From a virus (lineage: Duplodnaviria > Caudoviricetes), in the IMG/VR virus record IMGVR_UViG_3300031519_000185, positions 1 through 26,440 of that record: DNA of 26,440 bases; one strand, 5' to 3'. The position numbers and the translations under genes were made by a program. The notes below the pieces were generated by a model. It saw nothing but the letters and a program-made list of their open reading frames with translations, did no database searches and was not told the DNA's origin. The stretch's first letter is position 1; each line of letters begins with the position of its first letter. Positions 546 to 25,995 of this stretch are shown piece after piece.

Positions 546-551
546 TATTTA
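546..551 (-). promoter_or_regulatory. TAAATA late-type promoter box (leaderless)
   Basis: Minus strand reads TAAATA-GTAGT-ATG in a 34-bp intergenic gap. Confidence 0.6.
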
Positions 552-574
552 AAGGACCTAAACTTTTGGATGGG

Positions 575-814
575 TTAAACTGGCATTGAACTTATAATTG
601 TTGCAACAGCGCCTACTAGAGCAACAACAACGGTGCTTACCGCAACGATCATAGCCTTGACTAATCCTTTGTTGCCTTTGATAATACCTTGATGTAATTC
701 ACTTACTGCTGTTTCAACTTTTTCTAAACGGTCATTCAATTGTGCATACCTTATGGCACACAAATCAACGTGTGCTTCTAAATGGGCTCGCTCGTATTCT
801 GTAGTATCAGGCAT
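575..814 (-). CDS. Holin-like / XhlA-like membrane protein
   Basis: Coiled coil (LEAHVDLCAIRYAQLNDRLEKVE) followed by a C-terminal hydrophobic helix; located after the tail genes; 1-nt overlap with the upstream stop. Confidence 0.55.
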   Translation of the reverse strand: MPDTTEYERAHLEAHVDLCAIRYAQLNDRLEKVETAVSELHQGIIKGNKGLVKAMIVAVSTVVVALVGAVATIISSMPV

Positions 815-1236
815 TACGTGGCGCTAATAGTTGCACCAAGTGCTACTACCTTCCAATTTGTTCCGTCATATACACCCAAGCATAATGCGCCTGCGTTGCC
901 ATTTGAAACCATTGCAACATCACCTTCTGTGTTAGTGCTTAGTGCATTTACTTGTGCTGTTGTTAGTGAACTAAGACGTAGAACGTTTTGAATGTTTACT
1001 ACGCCGTTGGTTGGATTAAAAGTTTGTGTGCCTGTTGCCGTTATAGTGTTGGGCAATTTAGCGGCTGTGATCTTGCCACTTGCATTTGCTACAACAACGC
1101 CATTTGCGCCATTTGCATCTGCAATAATTGAGTTGAGACTGGTTACAGCATCAAACAAATCTGAACGTGCCAATGATGGATCGTCGCTCGCTGAATCTAA
1201 GTTAGTTGTGCCAATTTGACTTGTTGGAAATGCCAT
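814..1236 (-). CDS. Putative tail fibre or virion accessory protein
   Basis: Ala/Thr/Asn/Gly-rich; C-terminal LGVYDGTNWKVV motif typical of phage fibre domains; SD GAGG. Confidence 0.6.
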   Translation of the reverse strand: MAFPTSQIGTTNLDSASDDPSLARSDLFDAVTSLNSIIADANGANGVVVANASGKITAAKLPNTITATGTQTFNPTNGVVNIQNVLRLSSLTTAQVNALSTNTEGDVAMVSNGNAGALCLGVYDGTNWKVVALGATISAT

Positions 1237-1256
1237 ATTTTACCTCTCTCTGTTTA

Positions 1257-1262
1257 TATTTA
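1257..1262 (-). promoter_or_regulatory. TAAATA late-type promoter box
   Basis: ATAAATA in the 46-bp gap, 20 nt before the ATG at 1236. Confidence 0.55.
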
Positions 1263-1282
1263 TTTGATTTCATAAAATACCC

Positions 1283-2026
1283 CTATCTAACGAGGATATT
1301 TCCTTGTGTATCGCAATACTGTTCTGGTAATACTGCTAATTTTATGTCAAAGACAGAATTAGTGTAAATGCCTTCATATGTGGCAAAACTTACTTTTGGT
1401 ATAAGTCTATCTTTTTCTGCTATATTTGCAAACACTGGTGGTGCTGTTTCTACATAATCTGGTGCAACATAATCAACTGTAAAATACCCACCTGGTTGAT
1501 GAGGCTGAATGAACATTGAGACCACCTTTGATGCCTTCCTTGGCAATACAAGTTCTTTGGCTTGTAATCCACCGTTCAAATCTGCTGAATTGATATCTGT
1601 AAGCACAATTTCTAATCTTTCTGATGTTGCTGTTGCTGAAATATCTGAAATACTAGGTGGTCCACTTGCGGCATCATAATCTACAGTTACAAGAACAACC
1701 ACATACTGTCCATAAAACCCTTCTATGTTTGTGTCGCCAGGTGTAATTGTAGTAGATGTTTCTTCACCTGCAAAAGACCCTGTTTGACTTACATATACAG
1801 TATATTCACTGACTGTGCCTATGGCTGTTGTTGACACTTGTAGGTTAAAATACTGTGAACTTTCTAGGTCTAGTTGTTCTGATAACCAAGTTAATTGTGC
1901 CGCAGGCTCACCACTCCAATTATTCCAGGCATCCCAAGTGGTTAGATCGCTCCAATCACTGGTGCTAGGTGCTTCAATTAAGTTAGTGGTTAAATTAAAT
2001 ATGCCGTTGTAGGTAGGTAGTGCCAT
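1283..2026 (-). CDS. Tail-tip associated structural protein (fibre adaptor-like)
   Basis: Overlaps the central tail gene stop by 1 nt; acidic and beta-rich; Trp repeat (WSDLTTWDAWNNW); carries YFTVDYVAPDYVET. Confidence 0.6.
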   Translation of the reverse strand: MALPTYNGIFNLTTNLIEAPSTSDWSDLTTWDAWNNWSGEPAAQLTWLSEQLDLESSQYFNLQVSTTAIGTVSEYTVYVSQTGSFAGEETSTTITPGDTNIEGFYGQYVVVLVTVDYDAASGPPSISDISATATSERLEIVLTDINSADLNGGLQAKELVLPRKASKVVSMFIQPHQPGGYFTVDYVAPDYVETAPPVFANIAEKDRLIPKVSFATYEGIYTNSVFDIKLAVLPEQYCDTQGNILVR

Positions 2027-5000
2027 TATAATCTCCCTGGTGAAACACTAGTCAGTGTAAATGATGTAAATGCTTTTCTGTTCCACAATCTAGCACTATC
2101 TGCTAATGGCGCTATTGCTTGGTCTAAATTCTTTTCTAAAACAGTAGGATATACACTTAGGGTAAGTGGATCAATTTCTGTAATTCTATCACCTGGGTTT
2201 GGAATAAACACACCTTGTCTTGTTCCATTAAATGTTGCTGAAATAGGAGGCAATCTAAGTGCTATACTTGATTCTCCACCTGAGGTTTGAGCAACAGCAA
2301 CATATTCAAAATTTTCACCAGTAAAGCCATCTACCCATCCAGGAAACCTTCTCAATTGATTGCTGTTTGAGACAGCCTTTGCAGGATCAAAATAACCATT
2401 ATATTCTTGCTGACTTAGTGGATATTTTAGATGTGCTGTTACTGTTCCACCTGAGTTGGTAGTTGTAACTTGCACTTTCTCCCATCTGCCAGCACCTAGT
2501 TTGTTTAGAGTGTAACCACCATATGAGTTGTTTGGTTTGTAGTATCTGCGATATACATTTAATTGTGTATATCCTCCAATGTGTGCGTGACTAAACACTA
2601 ATTTGAAATAACCATTTGGACCATTAAAGTTGCTCTTTGGTATGTTTAGACTCCACTCTTCTACGTTTATTCTAGGATTCGCAGGAGCAGGAAACGGCTT
2701 GTCTACTTCTACAAGAGCATCTGCTGTTGTTAATAGTTTAAAGTTATACTTTTCTTTAAAGTTAGGTGGAAAGCCGTTGCTTGGTATGTCAGCGCCTTGT
2801 TGTCTATCTGTGATATAACTTGCACCTAACCAACTAAACTTTGCTTCTTCTCTTGAACTACCATTCCAATACAAAGGTGTAATTACAACTTCATATTCAT
2901 CTTCATATGTAATAGGTATTCTATCAAACCATAAACCTTCTGCGGTAAGTCCAGTCTTTGTAATAACAGTTTCTTCAAACTCTGGATCAGTGCCTGGCTC
3001 AATTATTCTTGTTCTTACTTTTATGCCTGCCCAATCTAACAAGAAACTTGAATCTGGTGGTGATAAAAACAATCTAATATTTGGATTGTCATAGTCTGGA
3101 AATAGCGTATGCACTCCAACTGTGATCAAATCTTTTGTGCTTGGTGCATTTGGATCTGCCAACACAATATTAACAGCGGTGTGATCCTCTGTTCTTGTTG
3201 CCGCACCATATGTAGGATCAAAGTCATAAAAACCAAACGCATTGACTTCTACTTTTAAGCCCTCAAATCTTACTTGTTTTACACTTTCCTTGCCATCCTT
3301 GTATGTAAGCCTAAGAATGAAATCATAGTGCTGTTGATCATTTGTTGGTGATGAAGGATATATTGGATTTCCAAACACGCTCATTGTTACTGTGTTTGCT
3401 GTGCCTGGCACATAATCATTTTGAGTTGTGCCAAATAGAAACTCTTGATAATTCCAAACCGTTGCAATAGTTGGTTTGTAATATATTTTTACACCATTAA
3501 CATCAAAGTTGATTGGATCATTATATATTTCTTGTGTTAGTGTAAAGTCAATTTCCCTTGGTGACTTAGGTGTGCCCCCGCTAAGTTGTGTTCTTGCTTC
3601 AATTTTAGAGAACGTGTTGTCTCTGTCTGTTGTAGTGCCTACTTCAGGTGGTGTCCAACCTGGACCTACTGTTTCTATAAAGTCTTTAGGCTCACTAGTG
3701 TCAACTGCCGCACCTGGTGTTAGAAATACTGAGTTTATTTTAGTAGAATATTCTCCACTACCATATTTTACTCTTGTTCTAACTGTGATACTTGAACGTG
3801 AATTAGCCGCAAAAGGACCTAATTTGAAACTTGCTGTTTCGCCAGGACCTGGACGATCTTTAACTTCTAAATATCTCCAAGGTTCATCTCTACCTTGTCT
3901 TTGGTAATAAACTTGTAGGCAAAGATATGCTGGATTCTGTGGCTGACGGAAATAAATGTCAGCATATACTAGGTCACCTTCAGCAGAGTAATCAATAACT
4001 GTAATATCTGCAATATCTGTAAGTGGCAATGGTTCAGGCACTACTACTGGTGGATTTGTAGGTGGTTCACCTGGTGGTGGTGGATCACTTGGTGGATCTG
4101 TAATTCCAGGATCATCTGGAGGTGTAACAATTGGCGGATCTTGTATTGGATCATCTGGTGTTCCTGTAGTTCCGTCAATTCTTAAAACATTATTTTGTCT
4201 AGCACTCAAACTACCAAACGCACTAGTATTTTGAACTTGAACATCATATGGTTGATTGGAACTATCCATTGAAGCAATAGTTTGTATTACTACTTCACTG
4301 GTGCTGTTTAATGATGTTGAGTTTGGTGTATATTGTGTGCCATCATCGCCAATGAATACTGCACTTAGACCTGTTTGAAAGTTTATGCCTGATACTGTAA
4401 CTGCATTTATACCTGGTGATCCAAACGTCTGTGGTGAAACACCAGTTATGCTTGGCGGTAAATGAACAATAGGAACAACTCCATTAGTAGGCGGAACAAG
4501 TCCAATTGGAATAGTAGTGTCAAACTCAGGATAGATAATTGATGCGCCTCTTGGTGTATAGGTAGGCAATACAATATCTTCTTCACCAACTCTTGTGTGT
4601 GGATATATTGAGTCTGGGTTTCTAACACACGCCAATGCCACGCTCATATCGTTGTTGTATTTGATTGAAACAATACGCCAAGGTGTTGTGCCAAAGTTCA
4701 ACATATGACTTTGTATTCTAATGTTGTCACCAACTTCTAATTCAAGACCTTGTGAAGTTACTGTTAGTGCGGCACTTTCTTGATAACGTGATTTATTAAA
4801 AATTAGTTTAGCCATATCTTTTGCAATGGCATAGTTTGTAAGAGCGCCAAATGTTGCGTCAAGTTTGTTTACACGCCCACCGTCTTTGTTAATGTATGTT
4901 TGTCTCTCTGCTTCAGTCTCAGGATACACAACCGTATCATTTGACCATTTGTTGTCTGGGTTGACGTAGGTTATACTTACTTGGTTATATTTTGATCCTG

Positions 5001-6117
5001 CTTCAACAGCACCATAAGTAATATCTCCAACTATGTTGTCTTTGTCAAATGTTGCCACAATGGTTGCCACACCGCTGGTAATATCTGTGTCATTGCCAGC
5101 GTCTTCTACTCTTAATTTGAATTTACCTTGTATGTAAGGCATATATGCTCTACAGTTGGGTAACATTGTTTTGATGTTGTTGAATATAGTGTTGCCAGTG
5201 TTTACTACAAAGTTAAATGTGTGTATTGGTCCACTAATACCACTTACATATTCTACTACTGTGTTGAATTTGGCTGATGTTGCTTGCCAACTAGCCCAAT
5301 CAATATCGTCATTAACAAGTCCTTTACCATAACGCGGATTACGTAGGTAATCTAAAATACATTCTGCAGGGTTTGTTGAATATCTTGTTGGTGCGTTTGC
5401 GTAGGTGTAATTTTGTGGTGTGCCTGTAAGTGCGGCAACCTTTTTACCTAGTATGCAGGCTTTTAAATCTGGTATGCTTCCACTAAATGGATTTGCTTCT
5501 GAATCTTCATTTGTTTCTATTTTCTTCCAATAGTAACGTGCAAACACCACAGCCATACCATTGTATACCATTGAGTTTTTCCAACTAGGTGCATCACTAC
5601 AAATACTCCAAGTGCCAAGATTACTTACGCTTGGGTCTGAATTGTAAATGCCGTGACTGAATTGTAATTGCACTCTGCCTGCGTATTTGCCAGTGGTTAT
5701 GTCTACAGTTTGTCCATTGTTTAATTGTCTAATAATTGTTTCTGGTAATTGATTGTCATCAAGAAACATTTCACGTAGGCCTTCAATTGTGCCTTCACTC
5801 AGCACATATGCAACCCAAAGATATTGATTGTTTGTGCTTCCTGTTTCTGCAAATGTTATTGCTCCGCCAACTTTACGATATCCATATACTACAGGTATTG
5901 CTGTTTCACTGCCTTGACGTGTAAGTTGCACACCTTGTTGACGATCCGCTTCTGCTTGTGCATCTGGTGCATCATATCCCCCAAATAATCCTAGGAATGG
6001 TTGTGTAACAAAACTAACAACACTTGATACTACCTTAACAACGGCTTTGACTACACCTTTGACTGCCTTAACTACACCTTTGACAACCTTTTTAATGGCT
6101 CTAACTATACCACTCAT
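2026..6117 (-). CDS. Central tail/tip attachment protein (lambda gpJ-like hub with IPT/Ig and FN3-like extensions)
   Basis: IPVVYG, LSEGTIEG and STNPAECILDYLRNPRYGKG motifs typical of gpJ-like proteins; IPT-like PSITGVSP...VTVSGINF; Pro-rich linker; position in the tip module. Confidence 0.85.
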   Translation of the reverse strand: MSGIVRAIKKVVKGVVKAVKGVVKAVVKVVSSVVSFVTQPFLGLFGGYDAPDAQAEADRQQGVQLTRQGSETAIPVVYGYRKVGGAITFAETGSTNNQYLWVAYVLSEGTIEGLREMFLDDNQLPETIIRQLNNGQTVDITTGKYAGRVQLQFSHGIYNSDPSVSNLGTWSICSDAPSWKNSMVYNGMAVVFARYYWKKIETNEDSEANPFSGSIPDLKACILGKKVAALTGTPQNYTYANAPTRYSTNPAECILDYLRNPRYGKGLVNDDIDWASWQATSAKFNTVVEYVSGISGPIHTFNFVVNTGNTIFNNIKTMLPNCRAYMPYIQGKFKLRVEDAGNDTDITSGVATIVATFDKDNIVGDITYGAVEAGSKYNQVSITYVNPDNKWSNDTVVYPETEAERQTYINKDGGRVNKLDATFGALTNYAIAKDMAKLIFNKSRYQESAALTVTSQGLELEVGDNIRIQSHMLNFGTTPWRIVSIKYNNDMSVALACVRNPDSIYPHTRVGEEDIVLPTYTPRGASIIYPEFDTTIPIGLVPPTNGVVPIVHLPPSITGVSPQTFGSPGINAVTVSGINFQTGLSAVFIGDDGTQYTPNSTSLNSTSEVVIQTIASMDSSNQPYDVQVQNTSAFGSLSARQNNVLRIDGTTGTPDDPIQDPPIVTPPDDPGITDPPSDPPPPGEPPTNPPVVVPEPLPLTDIADITVIDYSAEGDLVYADIYFRQPQNPAYLCLQVYYQRQGRDEPWRYLEVKDRPGPGETASFKLGPFAANSRSSITVRTRVKYGSGEYSTKINSVFLTPGAAVDTSEPKDFIETVGPGWTPPEVGTTTDRDNTFSKIEARTQLSGGTPKSPREIDFTLTQEIYNDPINFDVNGVKIYYKPTIATVWNYQEFLFGTTQNDYVPGTANTVTMSVFGNPIYPSSPTNDQQHYDFILRLTYKDGKESVKQVRFEGLKVEVNAFGFYDFDPTYGAATRTEDHTAVNIVLADPNAPSTKDLITVGVHTLFPDYDNPNIRLFLSPPDSSFLLDWAGIKVRTRIIEPGTDPEFEETVITKTGLTAEGLWFDRIPITYEDEYEVVITPLYWNGSSREEAKFSWLGASYITDRQQGADIPSNGFPPNFKEKYNFKLLTTADALVEVDKPFPAPANPRINVEEWSLNIPKSNFNGPNGYFKLVFSHAHIGGYTQLNVYRRYYKPNNSYGGYTLNKLGAGRWEKVQVTTTNSGGTVTAHLKYPLSQQEYNGYFDPAKAVSNSNQLRRFPGWVDGFTGENFEYVAVAQTSGGESSIALRLPPISATFNGTRQGVFIPNPGDRITEIDPLTLSVYPTVLEKNLDQAIAPLADSARLWNRKAFTSFTLTSVSPGRL

Positions 6118-6578
6118 AGTTCAATCTCCTTTGTCATAAAGCATCCATCTTTGAATCCAATACTTGAATATACACGTTTACTTCTTTCTGGATCAATACC
6201 AATGTCACCTGCGGTTATGCTAGATGCATCCATACTAATTGCCCATTCTTCAACTGAACCTACTAATTTACGAAACACATCCATTGAACGCTTTTCTTTA
6301 AGCACAAAGATCATTTCAATGTGTGCATACAGTATGTCAAAGTTCCAAGGTGCTTGTGTAAGAGCGCCACTTATAAAGCCCACAGGACGTCCGTTGTCCA
6401 TTAAACTAAACCAACACGCATCTGGAGCAATAACACGACTTCTAATACTCTCTATAACTGAGTTTTCATCATATTGTGCACCTAGTGCTGGATTTGTTTC
6501 ACTGGCTTCATCAGCATATTGACGAAATAGATTTACATTTAGATCTATTTCTTCTGGACGCATTGTTCTTACAATCAT
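6114..6578 (-). CDS. GNAT-family acetyltransferase
   Basis: N-terminal VRTMRPEE, GRPVGFI strand, IFVLKEKR...RKLVGSVEEWA (motif A-like) and VYSSIGF (motif B-like); ATGA overlaps with both neighbours. Confidence 0.75.
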   Translation of the reverse strand: MIVRTMRPEEIDLNVNLFRQYADEASETNPALGAQYDENSVIESIRSRVIAPDACWFSLMDNGRPVGFISGALTQAPWNFDILYAHIEMIFVLKEKRSMDVFRKLVGSVEEWAISMDASSITAGDIGIDPERSKRVYSSIGFKDGCFMTKEIEL

Positions 6579-7189
6579 TCGTTTCTACCCCATAAAAATT
6601 CTGTGTTGCCCACGTAACCAGCCTTTTCCATTGCTGTGTCGTATTTGACACCTTGCAATAACCAATTACTCCAATTGTTAGTTCTACGCCCTGCTAGTCT
6701 TTCAAAGTCTGCAAACTTGCTTGAACATTCTACGGTGATTGCACAAGTTGCTGAACTTTCTTGTATGCCTACATTGTATATCACACCATCATACATTAGT
6801 ATAGGTGATGAAACAATTTGTAAATCTGTGGTGCTTAAAAATGCCTTATAGACACACACTCTTTTTAGTTCTGGTTCTTTGTTTACAAATCTATCAATGT
6901 AGCCACTAGGTAGCCCTGACAAGTTGATTGAGAACTTGCCTATCTTTACGTCAAAGTCTTCGTTAATTGCTGAATATGCAAGAAACTCACCTTGTGCTGA
7001 ATATGTGTTTGTGCCTGCTTCTGGTGCTGTTGGTGAATTGTAATCAATATCAACACCGCCTGATGCTAGGTATATGGTAGCGTTGCCATTTGATGAATCT
7101 TTGAGATGTAATTCAAGTAAGTCTACAGCAAAATTTACATCACGGTAGTATTCATCTCTCAGTGCTGTATCTGAATAAAAACTTTTCAT
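6575..7189 (-). CDS. Tail tip/baseplate hub-associated protein (gpL/DUF2163-like)
   Basis: Follows the distal tail gene; C-terminal ITVECSSKFADFERLAGRRTN...WG motif seen in this family. Confidence 0.7.
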   Translation of the reverse strand: MKSFYSDTALRDEYYRDVNFAVDLLELHLKDSSNGNATIYLASGGVDIDYNSPTAPEAGTNTYSAQGEFLAYSAINEDFDVKIGKFSINLSGLPSGYIDRFVNKEPELKRVCVYKAFLSTTDLQIVSSPILMYDGVIYNVGIQESSATCAITVECSSKFADFERLAGRRTNNWSNWLLQGVKYDTAMEKAGYVGNTEFLWGRNE

Positions 7190-7801
7190 TTACCAGGTCT
7201 CTCTCATACTGACGCTTAATGAAGTAAAACCCCCTACGCCAATATCATATTGTTGAACATCTGCATCAACTATTGCTGTGAATTTTACATCATCAAATTC
7301 AATTACTGTGCCACTTGGAACATCTGCTACCAAACTACCTGAGAAGTAAAGTTGCATAGCGCCAGCACTATTTGATGTGGCTGTGCCTACTACTTGATAA
7401 ACTTTTGAATGGTTTGCAAACTTAATGTAATCACCACCAATTAGTGTTTTAGCATTACCACATCCTGCAAGTGTAACTGTTTTTACACCTTTTGATACTG
7501 CGCCATTTGTAGTTGCACCTGTGGTAATTGGTGTTAGGCTATTTGTATGACTTATTTCAGGTAAGATAATTTCAAAACTAAAAGCAGGACCATATGTTTG
7601 ACTTAGATATCCAGTAATGATTGAACTTTCTACTGCTGTTAGTGTAGGATACTTTACTTGCCAAGAATAAAAACTTGTGCCATATCCTGTTCTACGTGAT
7701 TTGCCACTAAAAGTCTCAGTTGTCAGTGTTGGTGTGTTAGTTTTAAAACTAATACCACTAAAACTTGGATCTTGTGGATAAAGTGTTACTATGTCTGCCA
7801 T
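7190..7801 (-). CDS. Distal tail protein (Dit-like)
   Basis: Directly after the tape measure gene; SGKSRR, WQVKYPTLT and GDYIKFANHSKVYQV motifs. Confidence 0.75.
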   Translation of the reverse strand: MADIVTLYPQDPSFSGISFKTNTPTLTTETFSGKSRRTGYGTSFYSWQVKYPTLTAVESSIITGYLSQTYGPAFSFEIILPEISHTNSLTPITTGATTNGAVSKGVKTVTLAGCGNAKTLIGGDYIKFANHSKVYQVVGTATSNSAGAMQLYFSGSLVADVPSGTVIEFDDVKFTAIVDADVQQYDIGVGGFTSLSVSMRETW

Positions 7802-10939: not shown

Positions 10940-10941
10940 AT

Positions 10942-11235
10942 CTATTTTCTCCTTCTAGATGTAGCCCTAAGGGTTTGCTTAGTGAAACCCCTTGGTGCTT
11001 GTTTACTTGAACCTTGCTCCAAACGCTCTATATAAGGCACACGGTTTTCAACTTCAAAACCTGTGCTGTCGCTACTAGTTTTCTTCCAGTTGCGTCTAGC
11101 GTTTCCACTTCGCTTTGGTGTTTTTGTCACCACAGTTTTATGGATTAAGTCAGCGTGGCTGTCTATGGTTGCCGCAATCTCTTGGGATGCCGCCTCCATA
11201 AACTGTTTGATACCTGTAATATCAACTCGTGCCAT
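10942..11235 (-). CDS. HK97 gp10-like tail completion/neck protein
   Basis: TPKRSGNARRNW and NRVPYIERLEQGSSKQAPRGF motifs. Confidence 0.8.
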   Translation of the reverse strand: MARVDITGIKQFMEAASQEIAATIDSHADLIHKTVVTKTPKRSGNARRNWKKTSSDSTGFEVENRVPYIERLEQGSSKQAPRGFTKQTLRATSRRRK

Positions 11236-11244
11236 TCTAAATTC

Positions 11245-11652: not shown

Positions 11653-11654
11653 AA

Positions 11655-11870: not shown

Positions 11871-11909
11871 TTTAGTTCTCCTTTAAACCTAGCCCTCACG
11901 CTCTGGCTC

Positions 11910-12347: not shown

Positions 12348-12356
12348 AAGTCAACT

Positions 12357-14560: not shown

Positions 14561-14580
14561 TAAACTTATTTATCACCATT
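14561..14580 (-). promoter_or_regulatory. Extended TAAATA promoter motif for scaffold/capsid genes
   Basis: AATGGTGATAAATAAGTTTA, 19/20 identical to 24104-24123 on the plus strand. Confidence 0.7.
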
Positions 14581-17980: not shown

Positions 17981-18312
17981 TAGATATCCTCATCCGTCCA
18001 AGGTAACGGAGTTGAGTCATCTCCACCATTTGGATTTTCTGATTGTCCAAGTATGTTCTTGCCTAAGAATATAAGCATTCTAGGATCTCCATCCATTGCT
18101 CTAGTCATCTGTGTTCTGCGTAATCCCATTGTGCCGTTTGCTTTGCCTAATTCAATTTCGCCTGAGTATTTCTTTTCTAGTGTGCCTTTGCTTATTCCTG
18201 TGATGTGGGATATTTCCGCCAATGAACAGTGAATCTCAGAGAGACGTTTTACCAAGTCCTTGTTGGCTTTGGCAATCTCCTTGTAATTCTTTTTGTCCTC
18301 TGGCTGGTCCAT
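17980..18312 (-). CDS. terS: Terminase small subunit
   Basis: N-terminal HTH (SLAEISHITGISKGTL) and MLIFLGKNILGQ motif; directly upstream of terL. Confidence 0.85.
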   Translation of the reverse strand: MDQPEDKKNYKEIAKANKDLVKRLSEIHCSLAEISHITGISKGTLEKKYSGEIELGKANGTMGLRRTQMTRAMDGDPRMLIFLGKNILGQSENPNGGDDSTPLPWTDEDI

Positions 18313-18641
18313 TATAGATACCTTTGTTCTACACGGAGTCTAAATCTGCGTATGTCTGTTTCACCATTGGTTGTTGTAATAGTGTTGGTTATGGTGTATA
18401 TTTCTCCTGCACTACCTCCACTTATTTCAACCACTGCTTGTGCTCCAATAATTGTTGTTGCGGCAATTACTACTGGTGCGGCATCACCACTTATAGTTGA
18501 TGCGGCAAATGTTGATGTTGATAGACTATCGCCTCCAGGAACCCAATCTACCCAATCTACTGTATAGGTAAGATAGGCCGCAGGATCTTTGACGATATAA
18601 CTACCTATGGTGTCTTTCTTAAATCCACTTGTATCTGGCAT
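18312..18641 (-). CDS. Putative fibre adaptor (small Ig-like virion protein)
   Basis: KDP...TYTVDW and SGG..G..Y.ITN.ITT..G motifs of a recurrent phage structural family; 1-nt overlaps at both ends. Confidence 0.6.
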   Translation of the reverse strand: MPDTSGFKKDTIGSYIVKDPAAYLTYTVDWVDWVPGGDSLSTSTFAASTISGDAAPVVIAATTIIGAQAVVEISGGSAGEIYTITNTITTTNGETDIRRFRLRVEQRYL

Positions 18642-20569
18642 TATATTCTCTCCGTTCTTGTTGGTGAAACAAACACAATTGGTGCTATTGGCAACTTATA
18701 TTGTCTTGTTTCTTGTTTTACTTTTGCAAGGCTTAGTTCTTGTTCAACAGTATTTAATCGTGTCTCCTGAACTGTGTTTATTTTCCTCAGTTCAGCAACT
18801 ATTGCAAAGGCTCTTGTTTGTTGTTGGACAGTAAGTCTACGATAATCATCAATGATCCATAACTTACCTGCGGCTACTGTGCCACCATTTGATAACAAGT
18901 CTGCTTGACCAAGTAATCTAAAGCCTGCTAAGAATGGTTGTGCAATCGTGCTTTCCATACTCATAAATGACGCTGGTTGTGCAAATAGTAGACTTGTAGT
19001 TGATGTTATTGCTGACGTGCTTGTAAACAAGCCTTGTCCACTCCACAAGTAACCTGGAACAACTTCTGTTGTAAACTCACTTAATAAGTTGCTTATGCCT
19101 GGCAATGCCAATCCACCTAGGCTTGTAACACTACTTGTTGCTAGAGCATCTACTTCAAATCCTTTGAGTATAATGCCTAGGTTGGCTGTTGCTTGTGATC
19201 CTGTGACTACTTGACTTGCACCATTAAAGTTTACTGAGCCTAGAGTCTGAAGATATCCACCTTCAGTTGTAACCTGACTTGCACCAGCAACAATACCCTC
19301 ACCGCCTTGTAACAAGAACGGATGTGTTGGTGCCATTTGTGTAGATGCTACTAGGTCACTTGCAATCTGCTGTAGACGCCCTGAACTAAAAGTAACTTCA
19401 CTTACACTTTCAATAGTTGAAGTGCCTGGACGTAGTCTTCCTGCACTAAAGTCTGTGACGCTACTACCACTTATAAAGGCACTAGCAGGACGATTAAGTG
19501 TTGGTTCGCCCGCAACTTGTGTGTCTGCTACTAATGAACCGCCAATGCTTATTAATTGTCCAAGTAGTGTAGGTGGCATTGTAAACTCACCTGCAAAACT
19601 CTGTGTCATTAATCCACTTACATTAAATGCTGGACTTTCTTCAAAATATTCAGCACCAGTTTCAAAATAGTCCTGGGCCACATAGTCTACAACAATATAA
19701 TCGTCACCAGTTGCAACATAATCATCTTCAATGTATATGCCTGGCACACCTTCTTGTGGGAATGCAACAAAGTTTACTGCTACACTTGTAAACGTGCTTG
19801 GTGTAGTTAATTCGTATGATTCTTCAACGCCTACTTTTACACTAGCGGTGCATACCACAGTTGATTCACTTGTAGCAATGTCAATAGTATCACCGTCAAC
19901 ACCGTCAAATATATAAGTGTTGGCTAACCAATAATTAGTTAGTGTTCCTGACAGTTGCGGTGTTATTGTAGTTAAGGCTATGAAACTGTTGTTTGAAGTC
20001 TTTTCTTCTACAGTATGTTTAACTCTAAAATCAAAGTTAGTAGCATTAAGCGTGTCTGTGCCTGTGCTTGGATTGTAACTATAGTTTAGACCACTTTGAC
20101 TAAAATTGTTGTGGGTAGATGGCCCAACATAAACATTGTTTTGTCCATTAAAATAGTGATAGGATTTATCACTACCCTCTTGTGTGGTGTAGTCTGCGTC
20201 ATTGCCAAAGCCGCTTGTGCTACTTGTAAATGTTGCACTAGTTAAACTAACACGTTGCTGACTTGCCGCAATAAAACCACCACTTGCATTGGTATAATCA
20301 CCAATTGCCCACGACACGCTTTGATTGCGAAGCATTTCAACAAAGCCAATACCTGTTAGTTTAAGTTCTAAACTTTTATCTTGATTGCCTGCACTTGTGC
20401 TAGTATTTGCCAAGTTGGCACGAAGTGCTTGACTAGAGTAGTTAGCCCAGGTTTTGCCTGTGTAATTTTCTCCAGCCGCATTTACATTAGTCTGAGACTC
20501 AGTGAAACTGCCACGAGTTATCGTGATAGTCTGACTGCTAGAAAATGCTTGGCGGGCTACTGTGCTCAT
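18641..20569 (-). CDS. Long repeat-containing fibre-like virion protein
   Basis: Ser/Thr/Gly-rich; Tyr-Asp repeat patch; degenerate ~18-20 aa repeats; C-terminal 9-aa QETR-type repeats. Confidence 0.6.
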   Translation of the reverse strand: MSTVARQAFSSSQTITITRGSFTESQTNVNAAGENYTGKTWANYSSQALRANLANTSTSAGNQDKSLELKLTGIGFVEMLRNQSVSWAIGDYTNASGGFIAASQQRVSLTSATFTSSTSGFGNDADYTTQEGSDKSYHYFNGQNNVYVGPSTHNNFSQSGLNYSYNPSTGTDTLNATNFDFRVKHTVEEKTSNNSFIALTTITPQLSGTLTNYWLANTYIFDGVDGDTIDIATSESTVVCTASVKVGVEESYELTTPSTFTSVAVNFVAFPQEGVPGIYIEDDYVATGDDYIVVDYVAQDYFETGAEYFEESPAFNVSGLMTQSFAGEFTMPPTLLGQLISIGGSLVADTQVAGEPTLNRPASAFISGSSVTDFSAGRLRPGTSTIESVSEVTFSSGRLQQIASDLVASTQMAPTHPFLLQGGEGIVAGASQVTTEGGYLQTLGSVNFNGASQVVTGSQATANLGIILKGFEVDALATSSVTSLGGLALPGISNLLSEFTTEVVPGYLWSGQGLFTSTSAITSTTSLLFAQPASFMSMESTIAQPFLAGFRLLGQADLLSNGGTVAAGKLWIIDDYRRLTVQQQTRAFAIVAELRKINTVQETRLNTVEQELSLAKVKQETRQYKLPIAPIVFVSPTRTERI

Positions 20570-20583
20570 TGATTAGGTTAACC

Positions 20584-21003
20584 TTAAGTTAAACTAACTT
20601 GTAGATTGCCTGTTGCCACCTGAAATTGGTCTCCAGTGGTTACTGTTTTTGTAACGGATAATTCGCCCGCCCATAATACTTGGCCGCCACTACTTGCGTC
20701 AAGAATTGCAATGCAAGTTACTGCCGCATCGTAGTTTCCTGTTGCTGTTGGAAATGTAACAGCCTGGTCATTTGATATTGATCCGCCACTTGCTGATCCA
20801 AATGTTGCTGATTGACGAACGTAACTGCCAAGAGTTACTTCATCACTAAGTGTTCCTGTTTCTAAGTTTGCTAATACACCGCTTGCCGTTCCGTGGAATA
20901 GTCCAAGATAAAGTGTGCTAGGTGATGTGTGACTGCCTGAGTTTCCGTTTAACCAAAAATCCAAGGTAGCGTTTTCTAAATAATTACTTGCCGCATTTGA
21001 CAT
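20584..21003 (-). CDS. Small fibre-associated structural protein
   Basis: SNYLEN..LD, LYLGL, YVRQ, TFPTAT and ILDASSGG motifs of a widespread phage virion family; SD AGGAG. Confidence 0.7.
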   Translation of the reverse strand: MSNAASNYLENATLDFWLNGNSGSHTSPSTLYLGLFHGTASGVLANLETGTLSDEVTLGSYVRQSATFGSASGGSISNDQAVTFPTATGNYDAAVTCIAILDASSGGQVLWAGELSVTKTVTTGDQFQVATGNLQVSLT

Positions 21004-21066
21004 AGTTGTTCTCCTTTGTTTATTTGTTGTGCAGAGCCATTCTGCTGTGTTGTTAAGTCAATCATA

Positions 21067-23229
21067 TTAACTTGGTGTTGTTCCATCACTTGGCGTGTTC
21101 GTTCCGCCTGTGGCGAATCCAATATTTTGTTGTGTTCCGCCGTTTGTTGCAAACGTAGGTGAACTAGTAGTATTACCATTAAAGTAGAACAGTGGTTGAC
21201 TTAGTCCACTGCCTGTTCCGTCTGATCCCATATCAACTGCGCCGTTGTCATAAAACTTGCTTATATTTGAACTTAGATCTATTACGCTATTGGTTGCCCA
21301 AATCTGTGCTATTTCTAGTTGAGTATTGCCTGGTGAGGTCCAAGTAGTAGGTGCTGTTTGTCCGTTAATAACAACTCTATTAAGTCCACTCCAATCAATT
21401 GATTCAGAAGTTGAAATGCTTGGGAATGTTATTTGAACTCCGTTAACATAACCATCCATTGTGTTGTTTACTGTGTCCATACTCATTACAACGTGAACCC
21501 AATCACCTTGTGCGTATAATGATGTTTCACTACTTGTTTTGTCATTGGTGCTATTAATTGTTTGCACATAAAAACGTATACTTGCATTGCCACTCTGGAA
21601 GAAGTATGGACCAATTAGTCGTCTACCACCTGCTTCTAAACAGAATGCACTTGCTCTTGATGCTGAGTTGTTTGGTTTAACCCAACCACTCCAAGTGTAA
21701 CCACCTGAATCACTAAGTGAATTTGATATTGATAGATCGTGATAGTATTCGTTGTTGTCAAATGCCACACTATTAAGTGTAACACTGGCCGCCGCCGCTG
21801 TTTCATCATCTGTTATACTAACACTACCATCTGCACCATCCATATGTAGTAGTGCTAGAGTGTCTGAGTCATTAGTAAACGCCGCTGTTGGAACAGTAAT
21901 TGAACTTGAACTAGGCGTGTATCTGGCAGTCTTTGATATTCTAACTTCGTCAAACCAAATGTCTGTGCCTGCGTTTGCCGCAAGTGCGCCATCTGCGTGT
22001 GAGCCAATACCAATGGGGTTGTCTAGACTTTGTGTCCAACCTGTGCCATTGCCAACTCTTGTGCCATTGAACCATAAACCCCAATCGCCACTTGAGTTTC
22101 TACTCAGTGCCACGTGGTGGAAAGTGTCTGTGCTTATAGCACTCATTGTTACTGGTGCTAGGTTCATTCCGCCAGTTCCGTTTGATGATAACTGTAGTTT
22201 CATATCGTGGTTTCTAAACAGCAACATTAGGTCGCCAGTGTCGTAACCACCTACTCTGTTTGACATTAATGAAACTGTGCCACCGCCTGCGTCAACATCT
22301 ACGTTAAAGAAACATTCCCACGTAAACTCTGTTTGACTGTTGAATGGTATATCTGTAATAACGACATTGTCGCCAGTTCCGTCTAGTAGTAGACTTGCTC
22401 CGCCAAACTTGTTTCTTGAAGTGTCTATTTGTGCATCGCCGCCTACTGTGATTGTGCTTCTTGACGCCGCCGCTCCGCCTGAGGCAAATGTTTCTACCAT
22501 TGATCCTGGTATGGTGAAGTTTGCACTATTATTTGATGTGCCTGTGTAACCTCTGTTTGATCCAATAGTAACCTTAAAGTCTTGAATGTGCCCTTGATAA
22601 TCGTTGTTGTCACTGCTGTTAAACTGTCCAATGTGTAGTGTTGAGAAGCCACTGTTTGAACTTACCCAAGCACCTTTGTAGATGCCATCATAATAGAAGC
22701 GTTTGGTTCCACCGTCACAAACAATAGCAAGATGATGCCAGCCACTGCCTATACCAATGTTGTTTTCATTACCAAAACCAAAACTTGAACCGTTGTTTAT
22801 ACCAAACAAGAATCTACCACCAACTTCACCACTTGATATGGCCCAGTTTGAGTTTGTAGATGAATTGTCAGCATTGAACCAACCTTCAATTACATATGTG
22901 CCACTTGATGCCGCAGGAATTGATGTTGATAGGCCATAAGCCATACTTTGTGTGCCGCCTGTGGCCACGTTTTCTAGTGCCTTGCCGTATGTTGGAGTGC
23001 TCCAATAAACTTCTGCATTGGTCACAGTTGAGTTTGCACCGCTGGTTAGAGTTGCTTGTGTTGATGAACCGTTAATACTTGGTGACACATCATTTAATTC
23101 ATTTGTTTCGTCAAATGGTAATGCTAAAAATACACTACTTGCATATGTGTCTGCTCTATATGCAATTGAACCGCCTGCGGCTATGATTGCACGTGATAAA
23201 AAACTTAATCTACTTGCTCCTAATGGCAT
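21067..23229 (-). CDS. LamG/concanavalin A-like multidomain adhesin (about 3 lectin-like domains)
   Basis: Repeated signatures IEGWF/WHHLAIV, FTWECFF/FHHVAL/DEVRISKTARY and TWSGWVK/WVHVVMS; SD GGAGG. Confidence 0.8.
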   Translation of the reverse strand: MPLGASRLSFLSRAIIAAGGSIAYRADTYASSVFLALPFDETNELNDVSPSINGSSTQATLTSGANSTVTNAEVYWSTPTYGKALENVATGGTQSMAYGLSTSIPAASSGTYVIEGWFNADNSSTNSNWAISSGEVGGRFLFGINNGSSFGFGNENNIGIGSGWHHLAIVCDGGTKRFYYDGIYKGAWVSSNSGFSTLHIGQFNSSDNNDYQGHIQDFKVTIGSNRGYTGTSNNSANFTIPGSMVETFASGGAAASRSTITVGGDAQIDTSRNKFGGASLLLDGTGDNVVITDIPFNSQTEFTWECFFNVDVDAGGGTVSLMSNRVGGYDTGDLMLLFRNHDMKLQLSSNGTGGMNLAPVTMSAISTDTFHHVALSRNSSGDWGLWFNGTRVGNGTGWTQSLDNPIGIGSHADGALAANAGTDIWFDEVRISKTARYTPSSSSITVPTAAFTNDSDTLALLHMDGADGSVSITDDETAAAASVTLNSVAFDNNEYYHDLSISNSLSDSGGYTWSGWVKPNNSASRASAFCLEAGGRRLIGPYFFQSGNASIRFYVQTINSTNDKTSSETSLYAQGDWVHVVMSMDTVNNTMDGYVNGVQITFPSISTSESIDWSGLNRVVINGQTAPTTWTSPGNTQLEIAQIWATNSVIDLSSNISKFYDNGAVDMGSDGTGSGLSQPLFYFNGNTTSSPTFATNGGTQQNIGFATGGTNTPSDGTTPS

Positions 23230-23241
23230 AATATTCCTCCC

Positions 23242-24000
23242 TTACGCTTGGAAATCTGTTGCTATTGAAGTCCAGTATGTGGTTCCGTCATAAAAAATTG
23301 ATACTACACTATCTGTTGTTAGTGTCTTAGCACCGCCTGCAAACTTGTGCGAACCTGTGCCAGTTGCGGCTCCTGATCCACTCACAATAAGTGTTACACT
23401 TTGACCTGTTGCATAATCACTAAATGCTGGTATTGCAAGTCCTGAACTTATAGTAACCTTTTGCACATTACCATTTGATACGGTAATAGTTGGTGAGTCT
23501 GTGGTGCCTAGATCGTGAACTGATTCTTTGTAGTCTTTAAGTTCAGCGTTGGTGATCTTAAATCCACCTGCTGTTAGATCAGCGGCTAAGTCTGGACTAG
23601 TGTCATCTGCTAGTTGTGTGATGCCTGCGGCTTGTGTGTTGGCAATGGTTAGTGTGTTTGTGCCTGTGTTTACTGCTACACTAATATTGGTGCCTGCGGC
23701 AATATTTACTGTTTCACTGTCTGACACATTAAATGAAGTTGTTCCATTTCCAATATCAAAATTGGTAGTGTCAGTGTCTGCTATGGTATTGGCAATAGTA
23801 ATAGTGCCACCTGATTCAGCAACACTTATGCCTGTGCCTGCTGAGAATGTTAGTTGTCCGTTTAATGCAATGCCAGTTGTAGATGAGCCGTCGCCCACTG
23901 TAATAACTGCTGATTGCAGGTTAGTGAAGTTTGCATCTGCTTCACCAAATGTTAGAGCACTTCCTTTGGAAGTCCTTGTTACTATGGTTGGTAATGCCAT
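23242..24000 (-). CDS. Fibre protein, 252 aa (start revised from 24105 to 24000)
   Basis: AAGGAG 9 nt before the ATG at 24000; N-terminal RTSKGSALTFGEADANFTNL anchor-like motif; two AGT.ISVA...TITIANT-type repeats; C-terminal FYDGTTYW domain. Confidence 0.75.
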   Translation of the reverse strand: MALPTIVTRTSKGSALTFGEADANFTNLQSAVITVGDGSSTTGIALNGQLTFSAGTGISVAESGGTITIANTIADTDTTNFDIGNGTTSFNVSDSETVNIAAGTNISVAVNTGTNTLTIANTQAAGITQLADDTSPDLAADLTAGGFKITNAELKDYKESVHDLGTTDSPTITVSNGNVQKVTISSGLAIPAFSDYATGQSVTLIVSGSGAATGTGSHKFAGGAKTLTTDSVVSIFYDGTTYWTSIATDFQA

Positions 24001-24030: not shown

Positions 24031-24054
24031 ATAAACATATTTACCAAATATTTG
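24031..24054 (-). promoter_or_regulatory. Extended TAAATA motif for the structural operon, with adjacent palindrome
   Basis: TGGTAAATATGTTTAT (24046-24031); CAAATATTTG palindrome at 24045-24054. Confidence 0.6.
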
Positions 24055-24103: not shown

Positions 24104-24125
24104 AATGATGATAAATAAGTTTATA
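24104..24125 (+). promoter_or_regulatory. Extended TAAATA motif, divergent, for the plus-strand genes
   Basis: AATGATGATAAATAAGTTTATA followed by SD AAGGAG and the ATG at 24142. Confidence 0.7.
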
Positions 24126-24141
24126 CAAAAGGAGACTAGAA

Positions 24142-24516
24142 ATGGCAAAATATCAGAAACTTCAAGAACCAGTATTCATCGTTAGTTCAGAACTAATTCA
24201 CAGTCACTACAGTGGCGGAGAAGTATACGAGGTTCATCTTATGGGCATCACTAGCCAAAGCAAATTCAAAACATATGTTGATCCAGCAAATGCAAATTGG
24301 ACACATTGGGAACACATCATTAGCCGTGCCAATTCAAAAGGCATTGTTTTAACCAACTGTAAACTCAAAGATCCTGCAAAGGGATTGATCAACGCTGACA
24401 GCAAAGTCACAATTGAGTATATGGTTACAAAAGAAGAACTTGCTGACATTCTAGAAGACTATTGGAAGAGTCAAGACAGGTTTAACAAACTGTTTGGAGA
24501 TGGGGATGTTAGTTGA
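24142..24516 (+). CDS. Hypothetical protein (beta-rich)
   Basis: Strong SD, own promoter motif, no competing long ORF. Confidence 0.75.
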   Translation: MAKYQKLQEPVFIVSSELIHSHYSGGEVYEVHLMGITSQSKFKTYVDPANANWTHWEHIISRANSKGIVLTNCKLKDPAKGLINADSKVTIEYMVTKEELADILEDYWKSQDRFNKLFGDGDVS

Positions 24517-24730
24517 ATACTTTGCCACTGATGATCAGGACCGTCAACTAGACGTCTTACTCAAAGGCTATGTAATTGAAGAATGGTTCAATCCTCAGGA
24601 TCAATACTATGTATTAGAGTCAATGGATGCTAGAGTGTTGACCATACTGTGCCTATTTGACATTGAGATACGTGTGCTCACAGATGACTTAGAGGCTAGA
24701 GACCATCCAGATCAGTCTGACTCCAATTAG
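24506..24730 (+). CDS. Small acidic hypothetical protein
   Basis: GGAG upstream of the ATG at 24506 (ORF track starts at 24494); similar to the partial ORF at the right edge. Confidence 0.65.
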   Translation: MLVEYFATDDQDRQLDVLLKGYVIEEWFNPQDQYYVLESMDARVLTILCLFDIEIRVLTDDLEARDHPDQSDSN

Positions 24731-25220
24731 CGTAATAATCAGTAGATTGTAACTTAGTTCTTGCGTCTAGTAGTAGACTCTCACGTTGTAGTATTATTAG
24801 TATACACCCATCCATACCAGTCCACACATTAGCCACAGGATAAGGATCTCGTGGGTGATTCACAAGTAGCACACAATCTCTATCACCAAGTGTGTTGGCC
24901 CAACGGTCTGCTGTTCTATGCACACCTTCACTGTTCAATCTATCTCCACTCCCACCTATCAACCCTACTTGTGTGGGAGGATAACGCCAAGCAAGAACTA
25001 TTGCTGTGTGTATACTAGGATCCCATACCTTTGCCCATAGTGCTAGAGTATCGTTCACACTTTCTAGTGCTTCTTTAACTATGAATGAGCCACGATAGCG
25101 TTCAGCATAAGGACAGATTGGCAATCCTCCTAGTTCTGGTTTAGTGGTGGTGAGTTTGTTGGTGATATAGTCCCACACCAACGTCTCAACTTTGGTCTGT
25201 TTTACGGGTGGTTGTGACAT
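24696..25220 (-). CDS. DUF1415-like hypothetical protein
   Basis: GLPICPYA, NHP and LQ...YY.NW motifs; start uncertain (ATG at 25220 versus track start 25250). Confidence 0.6.
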   Translation of the reverse strand: MSQPPVKQTKVETLVWDYITNKLTTTKPELGGLPICPYAERYRGSFIVKEALESVNDTLALWAKVWDPSIHTAIVLAWRYPPTQVGLIGGSGDRLNSEGVHRTADRWANTLGDRDCVLLVNHPRDPYPVANVWTGMDGCILIILQRESLLLDARTKLQSTDYYANWSQTDLDGL

Positions 25221-25416
25221 AGTTAACCAGTTCTCTGTGTGCTTCAGCAAGATTCTGCTGTGTTTTTAGAATGCCTTGTATGGTGTGATGATTGGTATTG
25301 GTTGCTTGAATTAGTTGCTCAACTGTGTTTTCAAGGTTGGTTACTTGAAGTTGCATCCGCATTAGTTCTGCTAGGGGATCAAAGTCAGGGTCAAACATTG
25401 GATCAAATTGGCCCAT
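25186..25416 (-). CDS. Small coiled-coil hypothetical protein
   Basis: FDPMFDPDFDP repeat followed by a heptad pattern. Confidence 0.65.
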   Translation of the reverse strand: MGQFDPMFDPDFDPLAELMRMQLQVTNLENTVEQLIQATNTNHHTIQGILKTQQNLAEAHRELVNYVTTTRKTDQS

Positions 25417-25495
25417 AGTTAATCCAATGTGTAATGGCTACTATAATTGCCACAGCAACTATGCCTAGGGTTGCATAATCATTAGGATCTATCAT
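25403..25495 (-). CDS. 30-aa single-pass membrane peptide MIDPNDYATLGIVAVAIIVAITHWINYGPI
   Basis: ATGA overlap with the upstream stop; fills the gap; not in the ORF track. Confidence 0.5.
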   Translation of the reverse strand: MIDPNDYATLGIVAVAIIVAITHWINYGPI

Positions 25496-25638
25496 AACCA
25501 TTGCCATAGTATGGTTGAAACTGTGAGTGCAAAACTGCACCATATAAACATTGATAGAGCACCATTAACTAGGCTCTGTGTTGTTTTAAATTTGCGGGCT
25601 AGTTCTAGTCCTGCTTCATAGTCTGTGTTTAATTTCAT
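25492..25638 (-). CDS. 48-aa membrane protein (start revised to 25638)
   Basis: GGAG 8 nt before the ATG at 25638; C-terminal hydrophobic helix. Confidence 0.55.
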   Translation of the reverse strand: MKLNTDYEAGLELARKFKTTQSLVNGALSMFIWCSFALTVSTILWQWL

Positions 25639-25963
25639 CTGGTATCTCCCATTCATCAAAAGGTTTATTATTTGGTATTGTGCGTTTAGTTTTGGTAAGT
25701 GTAAGGTGCTCACTGCGAAGCATAATTTGGACATTGTCTACACACCAAGGTTGTGTGGTATCACGCCTAGTCAAACATAGACAGTGGCTGTTGCGTCCTT
25801 TGCGTTCAAAGTCAGTGCCCCATACAGTAGCATACTGTTCAAAGGTGAGTTCATACAGTTCACCTCTGTGTTTGGCCTGTGAGCGATGTCTTGAGAAATG
25901 AAGTCTCTGACGACTTTCTAGTTTGGTTGGGTAATTTAATACACCTTGTCTTGTGCCTGCCAT
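25616..25963 (-). CDS. HNH-like (beta-beta-alpha-Me) endonuclease-related protein, possibly degenerate
   Basis: AKHRG..YELTFE and CLTRRD...W..DNV motifs; SD AAGGAG. Confidence 0.6.
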   Translation of the reverse strand: MAGTRQGVLNYPTKLESRQRLHFSRHRSQAKHRGELYELTFEQYATVWGTDFERKGRNSHCLCLTRRDTTQPWCVDNVQIMLRSEHLTLTKTKRTIPNNKPFDEWEIPDEIKHRL

Positions 25964-25973
25964 TGTTGCTCCT

Positions 25974-25995
25974 TATAAACATATTTATCATCAGT
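25974..25995 (-). promoter_or_regulatory. Extended TAAATA motif
   Basis: ACTGATGATAAATATGTTTATA, 20/22 identical to 24104-24125. Confidence 0.7.

Follow-up and report, generated by a model that had tools for sequence, protein, structure and literature searches.

TAAATA promoter boxes in a clade of aquatic siphoviruses and their possible dependence on the late transcription of T4-like helper phages

The IMG/VR virus record IMGVR_UViG_3300031519_000185, whose 26,440 nucleotides (nt) were analysed as a whole and are called the window in the following, encodes the virion of a siphovirus and carries the hexamer TAAATA in front of structural and accessory genes. Judged from the sequences, the conservation of this box among relatives, its geometry, its coupling to terminators and its avoidance within genes make it very likely that it acts as a promoter. 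We slightly favour the explanation that the phage is a virion-autonomous satellite virus, which uses the late transcription and probably also the replication and lysis functions of a T4-like helper phage. The window has a GC content of about 40% and no terminal repeat, so it is not closed and represents a fragment, which we take to hold most of the genome of a small marine siphovirus. Twelve studies have the phage in their metagenomes, from marine and brine samples, and 3 of the 20 runs that contain it are RNA runs.

A preliminary description of this DNA had placed seven TAAATA copies on the sense strand of intergenic gaps, 5-57 nt before start codons, and three sense copies within genes (239, 18751 and 23703). 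When these were checked, both the positions and the distances proved exact. The seven intergenic sites, with the open reading frames (ORFs) behind them and the relatives (G numbers and DSL-LC06) that keep the position, are:

546..551, minus strand: 5 nt ahead of the zinc-finger ORF, counted to its ATG; a leaderless message is predicted
1257..1262, minus strand: 20 nt before the last tail-tip gene; kept in G001, G002, G003 and G008
12861..12866, minus strand: shortly after the post-capsid terminator and 57 nt ahead of the head-tail adaptor gene; transcription of the tail operon is predicted to re-start from it
14567..14572, minus strand: 37 nt before the scaffold gene, the most conserved site; predicted main head promoter
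24038..24043, minus strand: 37 nt before the ATG at 24000, heading the fibre/decoration-terminase-portal block; kept in G001, G002, G003, G006 and DSL-LC06
24112..24117, plus strand: 24 nt before the ORF of a protein of 124 amino acids (aa), back to back with the 24038 box
25982..25987, minus strand: 18 nt before the HNH-like ORF

An N4-N5 layout of the box is also found before the zinc-finger orthologue in G001, G002, G003, G007 and G009. Six further plus-strand copies, absent from the preliminary description, start at 13, 1996, 3868, 10379, 17720 and 20977; five of them run antisense within genes, and the first is in the left non-coding end. The latter (13-18) lies just downstream of a sigma70 promoter on the opposite strand and is aimed at the late terminator, with no ORF after it.

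Over the whole window and both strands TAAATA is under-represented, with 16 copies against 24.8 expected from dinucleotide shuffles. Upstream of start codons it was found 6 times in 1,208 nt, compared with 1.4 times in 300 shuffles (P=0.003). Its density is 4.97/kb upstream of starts and 0.16/kb in coding DNA, the sites being sorted automatically without any promoter information. The preliminary description had named a lack of intergenic enrichment over shuffled controls as a result that would speak against its reading, and an enrichment was found. One other hexamer with this composition was likewise counted 6 times, and TAAATA ranks only 23rd of 4096, so that the window by itself is no more than suggestive and the weight of the evidence comes from the relatives.

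Capsid searches in IMG/VR gave 67, 15 and 80 loci, the last of these from 327 capsid relatives. At 85% capsid identity, 130 loci fell into 45 clusters, and 40 of these had enough upstream DNA for testing the region before the scaffold gene. In 39 of these 40 clusters, which share less than 85% and down to about 40% capsid identity, a TAAATA lies no more than 130 nt upstream of the scaffold start. The reverse complement was found in 2 clusters, and words of the same composition in a mean of 7.7, the best of them (28) overlapping the box. The sole miss was L130; its cluster mate G013 has the box, as does L089 of the unscored L088 branch. Box and scaffold gene are separated by anything between 17 and 87 nt, and the flanking sequences cannot be aligned, so that the hexamer itself is the conserved unit. 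The box is seldom seen before internal genes (capsid 2/43, major tail 0/27, chaperone 2/26, Dit 2/14) and takes an intermediate place before the portal (7/30), large terminase (TerL, 4/24) and gp80-like (4/8) genes. An upstream enrichment at P<0.05 was observed in 14 of 15 clade genomes, which are partly non-independent, as some pairs share 87-94% capsid identity. The gp55-encoding myophage HTVC008M also showed the enrichment (40 vs 14.5). The pelagiphage HTVC111P showed none (4 vs 6.7), and in the four HTVC111P-type isolates the box was never found before the scaffold gene.

The preliminary description had seen no properly spaced -35 element, and this was borne out in the relatives: a TTGACA-like hexamer with a spacer of 15-19 occurs at 3 of 71 orthologous sites, compared with 2, 1 and 1 in control windows. 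Only the six bases TAAATA are invariant across these sites; an extended -10 is not conserved, and the two bases on the 5' side are CA (19), GC (12), AC (11), TA (10), AA (9), GA (6) or other (4). When the box is at most 12 nt from the start codon, exactly five bases separate it from the ATG in 8 of 11 cases among the cluster representatives and in 11 of 18 in HTVC008M; three control words had this spacing 1, 0 and 0 times. The T4 late promoter is described as an eight-base TATAAATA box beginning at -13, with no accompanying -35 element (PMC2988020). This leaves five bases before +1, as in the observed spike.

The avoidance of the box in genes was measured by synonymous-codon shuffling in 11 pooled clade genomes. 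Ranked by z, TAAATA/TATTTA showed the strongest depletion among 1,974 hexamer pairs (85 vs 266; rank 41 by ratio). It was also depleted in HTVC008M (110 vs 209) and not in HTVC111P (41 vs 38). In the coding DNA of the window alone, 3 copies were counted in sense against 9.7 expected, and 5 in antisense against 12.5. Such an avoidance on both strands is the outcome expected of selection against stray initiation.

Two terminator-like hairpins and one promoter of the sigma70 type were predicted in the window:

12897..12934, minus strand: intrinsic-terminator-like hairpin after the major capsid gene (-25.2 kcal/mol, z -5.3)
72..94, minus strand: terminator-like hairpin with U-run at the end of the late operon, ahead of the sigma70 promoter (z -4.6)
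34..62, minus strand: near-consensus sigma70 promoter TTGACT-17-TATAAT with 11 of 12 matches, the best in the left half of the window

Of 18 lineages that have a terminator-like hairpin after the capsid gene, 17 also have a box there, compared with 0 of 23 lineages without the hairpin, a contrast inflated by the shorter gaps of the latter (10-85 nt, compared with 60-876 nt). All three RNA runs cover the scaffold-capsid region. The RNA contigs of two studies stop inside the post-capsid hairpin (at 12925 and 12908), which hints weakly at a transcription unit but is silent on its start.

TAAATA opens with a stop codon, several sites overlap the stop of the upstream gene, intergenic DNA is AT-rich and the rank of the word in the window is modest. 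It could therefore be taken for an AT-rich stop-codon by-product, a protein-binding site or an archaeal TATA box and not a promoter. We consider this hardly credible. The word is strand-specific (39 vs 2 for the reverse complement) and far above words of the same composition, it is avoided on both gene strands and it is coupled to terminators. An archaeal TATA box is located about 25 nt upstream, and the five-base gap to the ATG and the presence of sigma70 promoters do not fit it. An archaeal host was rejected on the same two grounds.

The sigma70 promoter at 62-34, which the preliminary description had overlooked, points off the left end of the contig into the missing early region. In G002 (4781) and G003 (20676) the box is nested inside a near-perfect sigma70 promoter in the order TTGACA-TAAATA-TATACT. 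Similar overlaps of early with late promoters are described for RB49 and S-PM2 (PMC2984593). In G005 (L078:807-5143, minus strand) five near-identical sigma70 promoters precede one gene each, including an AAA-like ATPase and homing-endonuclease-like ORFs.

A reading of the box by a host factor, be it the housekeeping sigma factor, an alternative host sigma factor or a chromosomal gp55-like gene, appears improbable. TAAATA does resemble a -10 hexamer, and at CarD-dependent alphaproteobacterial promoters the housekeeping sigma factor accepts a -10 element without the last T. The clade genomes also use ordinary Shine-Dalgarno sites and sigma70 promoters. However, the six bases are invariant while neither a -35 nor an extended -10 is conserved, unlike in sigma70 promoters. 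The same genomes have separate near-perfect TTGACA/TATAAT promoters, with TAAATA sometimes nested in them, which argues for two different readers, and the five-base spacing matches that of a gp55 phage.

We then looked for a reader in the genomes themselves. The preliminary description had recognised no sigma factor, clamp or RNA polymerase (RNAP) in the window, and this holds for all 36 ORFs, which were scanned against PHROGs and Pfam. The named ORFs form a full siphovirus set of head, packaging, neck and tail genes, and no sigma factor, polymerase, RNAP, helicase, primase, clamp, integrase or endolysin was found among the 36. Four closed relatives have no recognisable late sigma factor, which makes the earlier suggestion of an unseen one outside the window unlikely, although the missing part of the window itself, estimated at about 2 kb from G001, was not recovered: near-identical records reach no further and the contigs of three DNA runs had no bridging sequence. 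The closed relatives are:

G007: 28,914 nt, the head recurs
G008: 28,810 nt, with a terminal repeat
G001: 28,753 nt, with the terminase divided between the two ends (residues 1-326 and 329-416); its capsid shares 87% identity with that of the window
DSL-LC06 (OR003941): 29,811 nt, circular

From eight genomes, 150 non-core ORFs were scanned (147 of 188 listed and three added; mainly alternate frames over terminase and tail genes, GNAT copies, small head-region ORFs and annotated DSL-LC06 genes were left out). The matches were HNH nucleases, methyl- and glycosyltransferases, small terminases (TerS), holin-like proteins and asparagine synthase, and none was to a sigma factor, a replisome protein, an integrase or an endolysin. 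In the four closed relatives no match to sigma/gp55, polymerase, primase, helicase, clamp, integrase or endolysin was obtained. Thirteen HTVC008M proteins (gp55, gp33, gp45, gp44, gp62, gp43, gp41, gp61, gp32, gp59, lysozyme, RegA and UvsX) gave a best E of 0.075 against 24,364 six-frame segments, and a search of the same segments with a profile built from 80 gp55 sequences returned no match at E<=10. Sigma70_r2 matched 0 of 14 relatives and both of two gp55 controls. The paper on DSL-LC06 states that all seven of its genomes have replication proteins (PMC10611076); for DSL-LC06 this is supported neither by the GenBank annotation nor by the present searches, and the supplementary table of that paper may bear on it.

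A self-sufficient phage, in which a small, fast-evolving factor of its own redirects the host RNAP to TAAATA and host enzymes replicate the DNA, is unlikely but deserves attention. Coliphage rV5 has a T4-like late motif, TggTAaAAtA, with no homologue of gp55, gp33 or gp45 described, and was propagated on E. coli alone (PMC3606486), so a self-sufficient phage can carry such a motif while lacking homologues of gp55. HTVC111P-type phages grow without a polymerase of their own (bioRxiv 10.1101/2019.12.14.876532). Most accessory ORFs of the clade have no family, and every genome has sigma70 promoters before small unknown ORFs, or room for them. In addition, the G001 homologue of 25616-25963 weakly matches the PHROG 'decoy of host sigma70' (E 9e-4, with no stretch passing). 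On the other side, a promoter that is invariant across 40% capsid identity should keep its reader, and only TerS, among the non-core families, is common to all four closed genomes. Each of these has an HNH-type nuclease, of differing families; the zinc finger is present in 2/4, the 124-aa family in 2/4, the coiled-coil family in 3/4 and the HNH-like family in 2/4. An own factor would also leave the missing endolysin unexplained.

The zinc-finger ORF was considered as such an activator and rejected: it has no cultured homologue and no informative Atlas match, and its 19 homologues are all unnamed. Its gene itself lies behind a TAAATA box, and its model (pLDDT 73.5) fits no solved structure, with no match in the PDB at E<=0.001. 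The 124-aa ORF had no Pfam match and stayed under 0.9 in the Atlas, and it is absent from G001 and DSL-LC06. Many members of its family (window 24142-24516, plus strand) end in a short F-x-x-L-F-like motif, presumably similar to clamp-binding tails.

Dependence on a helper, as proposed in the preliminary description, is likely, and it is the most economical explanation that remains. Its promoter part is well supported and the closed relatives have no detectable reader; the dependence we infer from the absence of reader genes, and no helper was found. After injection only a few sigma70 promoters would fire (in the window that at 62-34) and make small accessory proteins. In a helper-infected cell, transcription by gp55-RNAP would begin about six bases downstream of each box and yield a scaffold-capsid transcript terminated by the 12897-12934 hairpin, a tail transcript from the re-start and some leaderless messages. 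Helper or host enzymes would copy the DNA from a non-coding region, the phage's own terminase and virion proteins would package it, and the helper endolysin would free the particles. T4 late activation requires a clamp that is loaded in cis at a nick or primer junction (PMC2988020), and for this reason the HNH nucleases could, speculatively, matter by giving such nicks.

A facultative or historical dependence, with a slow solo cycle by sigma70 read-through and boxes for the times when a T4-like phage takes the polymerase, is quite improbable. It would agree with the nested early/late promoters and with the helicase- and ATPase-like genes of some members. However, the post-capsid terminators are followed by TAAATA and by no sigma70 promoter, so the tail genes seem to need the box, and the closed genomes lack an endolysin.

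Besides the rV5 precedent and the gap lengths after the capsid gene, several points weigh against the reading of the clade as satellites of T4-like phages. A divergent factor could hide among the many unannotated accessory ORFs, as the dependence rests on absence. The box keeps six of T4's eight bases and does not reach the full eight-base or the seven-base ATAAATA consensus. Two of the four HTVC111P-type isolates have TAAATA before a minor head gene upstream of the scaffold gene, in very AT-rich DNA. The RNA contig of the third study crosses the post-capsid hairpin. Weak matches to a DEAD helicase in G013 and to AAA in G005, both non-closed, mean that the lack of replication genes is not clade-wide. 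Finally, no helper or host for the window was found by shared genes or by the restriction-site profile. The window proteins gave no match to HTVC008M. The restriction-site avoidance of the window is shared by none of 42 HTVC008M-type gp55 loci of at least 6 kb, whose GC content is 27-38% compared with the 40% of the window.

This avoidance is extreme and usable as a host fingerprint. AGCT, CATG, CCGG, GTAC, TCGA and GCWGC have 0 copies in the window, where about 107, 148, 17, 97, 34 and 48 are expected, and the relatives each lack a different subset of these six sites and of ACGT, TGCA, GCGC and CTAG. Since the site profile is unlike that of SAR11 phages and of the 42 gp55 loci, SAR11 myophages are probably not the helper. 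In favour of a helper, phages with gp55 are plentiful in the same collection, at an estimated 7,700 stretches or so, and nearly ubiquitous. The search for common genes gave weak leads: a G008 gene is 72% identical in DNA (206 nt) to the T4-like Mosig EXVC030M and another is 68% identical to the siphovirus Kolga. The LamG protein of the window has one close relative at its C-terminus and 26-38% matches mostly to baseplate proteins of T4-like cyanophages, too weak to name a helper. Searched in the same way, window 24699-25220 had no relative, and the asparagine synthase of G006 and the accessory DNA of DSL-LC06 gave nothing useful.

The genes of the window are arranged as follows:

220..540, minus strand: 106-aa CxxC...CxxC zinc-finger protein, not in all clade members
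575..814, minus strand: holin-like 79-aa protein with a C-terminal hydrophobic helix, judged from the sequence; no endolysin adjoining
814..12803, minus strand: siphovirus neck and tail block (PHROGs/Pfam) with adaptor, terminator, major tail, neck, chaperones, Dit, hub, GNAT acetyltransferase and tip proteins
814-1236, minus strand: last tail-tip gene
2026-6117, minus strand: central fibre/hub
7801-10401, minus strand: tape measure
12962..13819, minus strand: major capsid protein (PHROGs/Pfam, capsid searches)
13843..14529, minus strand: scaffolding protein (PHROGs/Pfam)
15215-16726, minus strand: SPP1-like portal
16730-17980, minus strand: large terminase
17980-18312, minus strand: small terminase
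18312..24000, minus strand: fibre/decoration genes, gp77- and gp80-like adaptors
21067-23229, minus strand: LamG-domain protein
24142..24516, plus strand: protein of 124 aa, from a large family without a name that comprises 311 clusters at 50% identity
25186..25416, minus strand: predicted coiled-coil protein of 76 aa with an N-terminal D-P-x-x-x-L motif, in 9 genomes
25616..25963, minus strand: HNH/His-Me-like nuclease candidate (phrog_16521), family in 8 genomes

Relatives of the holin-like protein, whose family was found in 11 genomes, match a PHROG 'hemolysin' family. The DSL-LC06 homologue of 25616..25963 carries the annotation 'restriction endonuclease PacI'. At 10398-10939 (minus strand) a tail chaperone is followed by a short downstream frame and a gap with a hairpin, a layout which we take to be typical of a programmed frameshift. 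G007, G009, G012 and G013 belong to the same capsid clade and have a neck and tail module that differs from that of the window, a swap of the tail module in which the TAAATA wiring was kept. In DSL-LC06 (1732-9017) and in the accessory region of G006, glycosyltransferase, FkbM methyltransferase and asparagine-synthase genes stand under TAAATA boxes, which suggests a glycosylation of the virion.

A non-coding stretch of 500-750 nt with hairpins follows the late operon in G001 (17230-17740, L070), G003, G006, G007, G008 and G009, with a counterpart at about 570-1330 in DSL-LC06, and the right end of the window (25964-26220) may be part of it. G001, G003 and G006 share the short word GAGCGATAGC there. 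The stretch is a candidate replication origin. A conserved RNA was rejected, as there was no Rfam match in 6 sources, the alignment was poor and only short words were common. The DEAD-helicase-like protein of G013 (L155:763-2088, minus strand; 442 aa, phrog_2467) lies behind a sigma70 promoter and TAAATA and is a possible origin-binding initiator.

It is a serious though still tentative possibility that this widespread marine and freshwater clade consists of virion-autonomous, obligate transcription-level parasites of T4-like myophages, from which they would take gp55, the late polymerase, the replisome and the endolysin. If so, they would be bacterial virophages and a burden on some of the most common large phages of aquatic habitats. 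To our knowledge, known phage satellites mostly take virion parts, and the few that encode a capsid of their own are small isolates from Streptomyces or Acinetobacter. If a complete 29-kb siphovirus needed the late sigma factor of a helper, it would look ordinary to annotation pipelines, and such parasites would be miscounted as independent phages. Helper dependence would explain the clade's lack of isolates, and co-culture with T4-like phages would be a route to isolation. A promoter box that is present and purged from coding DNA while its reader is absent would serve as a sequence test for hidden satellites. If the reader is a new small factor instead, it would constitute a novel mechanism of late transcription, convergent on the T4 box.

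In the literature, with subscription journals largely uncovered, no report was found of a satellite of a T4-like phage or of T4-type late promoters in a siphovirus without a sigma factor. The T4 late system consists of the gp55 sigma factor, gp33 and the gp45 clamp (PMC2988020), and the late box of S-PM2 is given as NATAAATA (PMC2984593). Like T4 late promoters, the clade box is lone, TATA-like and without a -35, is AT-rich downstream, occurs in both polarities, lies five bases from the predicted +1 and takes part in overlapping early/late promoters, and the gp55 myophage HTVC008M has the same layout. Unlike the T4 family, the clade genomes have no detectable gp55, gp33, gp45, gp44/62 or replisome and keep only the six-base core, and the virion is an SPP1-portal siphovirus and not a T4-like myovirus. 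Since the reader genes are absent and six of the eight bases are kept, the clade resembles T4 late transcription in its working and is not a member of that system. It also differs from rV5, a large self-sufficient myovirus with its own replication genes and a motif that is not TAAATA (PMC3606486).

The closest clade member among 50,697 GenBank phages is DSL-LC06, itself metagenomic; no isolate of the clade is among these records. The six capsid matches there are DSL-LC06 (39.5%), four HTVC111P-type pelagiphages (35-37%) and one Microcystis phage. DSL-LC06, of the proposed 'Nanhuiviridae', shares with the window the gene order from fibre to terminase, head and tail, the core genes, a TerL of 48% identity and the TAAATA positions, and has no annotated replication gene. 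It differs in being from freshwater and in its accessory glycosyl- and methyltransferases. The clade was published as an orphan group around DSL-LC06, in a cluster of 50 uncultivated viral genomes, and the main text of that paper mentions neither promoters nor satellites (PMC10611076). The nearest cultured kin are the HTVC111P-type pelagiphages (TerL 48-50% identical), which are similar in size and head-tail order, have no DNA polymerase and were purified as clones (bioRxiv 10.1101/2019.12.14.876532). In contrast to the clade, HTVC111P has a DnaD-domain gene, regulators and a lysozyme, and neither enrichment nor avoidance of TAAATA. This contrast fits a helper dependence of the clade. In a quick capsid tree the window and DSL-LC06 are on separate well-supported branches. 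HTVC111P has a long branch in this quick tree, so no order of events is claimed.

P4, the phage-inducible chromosomal islands (PICIs), capsid-forming PICIs and PICI-like elements (PLEs) reside in the host genome or as plasmids and obtain capsids or tails from a helper, and PLE activation hinges on the transcriptional progress of the helper (PMC13587820, PMC13595925). The clade, in contrast, has all virion parts of its own, no integrase match and no capsid relative in 185,579 prokaryote genomes. The Streptomyces satellite viruses MiniFlayer and MulchRoom are more alike: they have their own terminase, portal, scaffold, capsid and HNH nuclease, are reported without primase or other key replication genes, and MiniFlayer without an integrase (PMC10690885). 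They are 15-17 kb in size, have no full tail module and were shown to need a helper by co-isolation, and no description of a promoter-level dependence was found for them (PMC10690885), whereas the clade genomes are 28-31 kb with a complete long-tail module. With its own encapsidation set and no key replication genes detected in the four closed relatives, the clade agrees, in its predicted gene content, with the genomic side of what MiniFlayer and MulchRoom set for a satellite virus.

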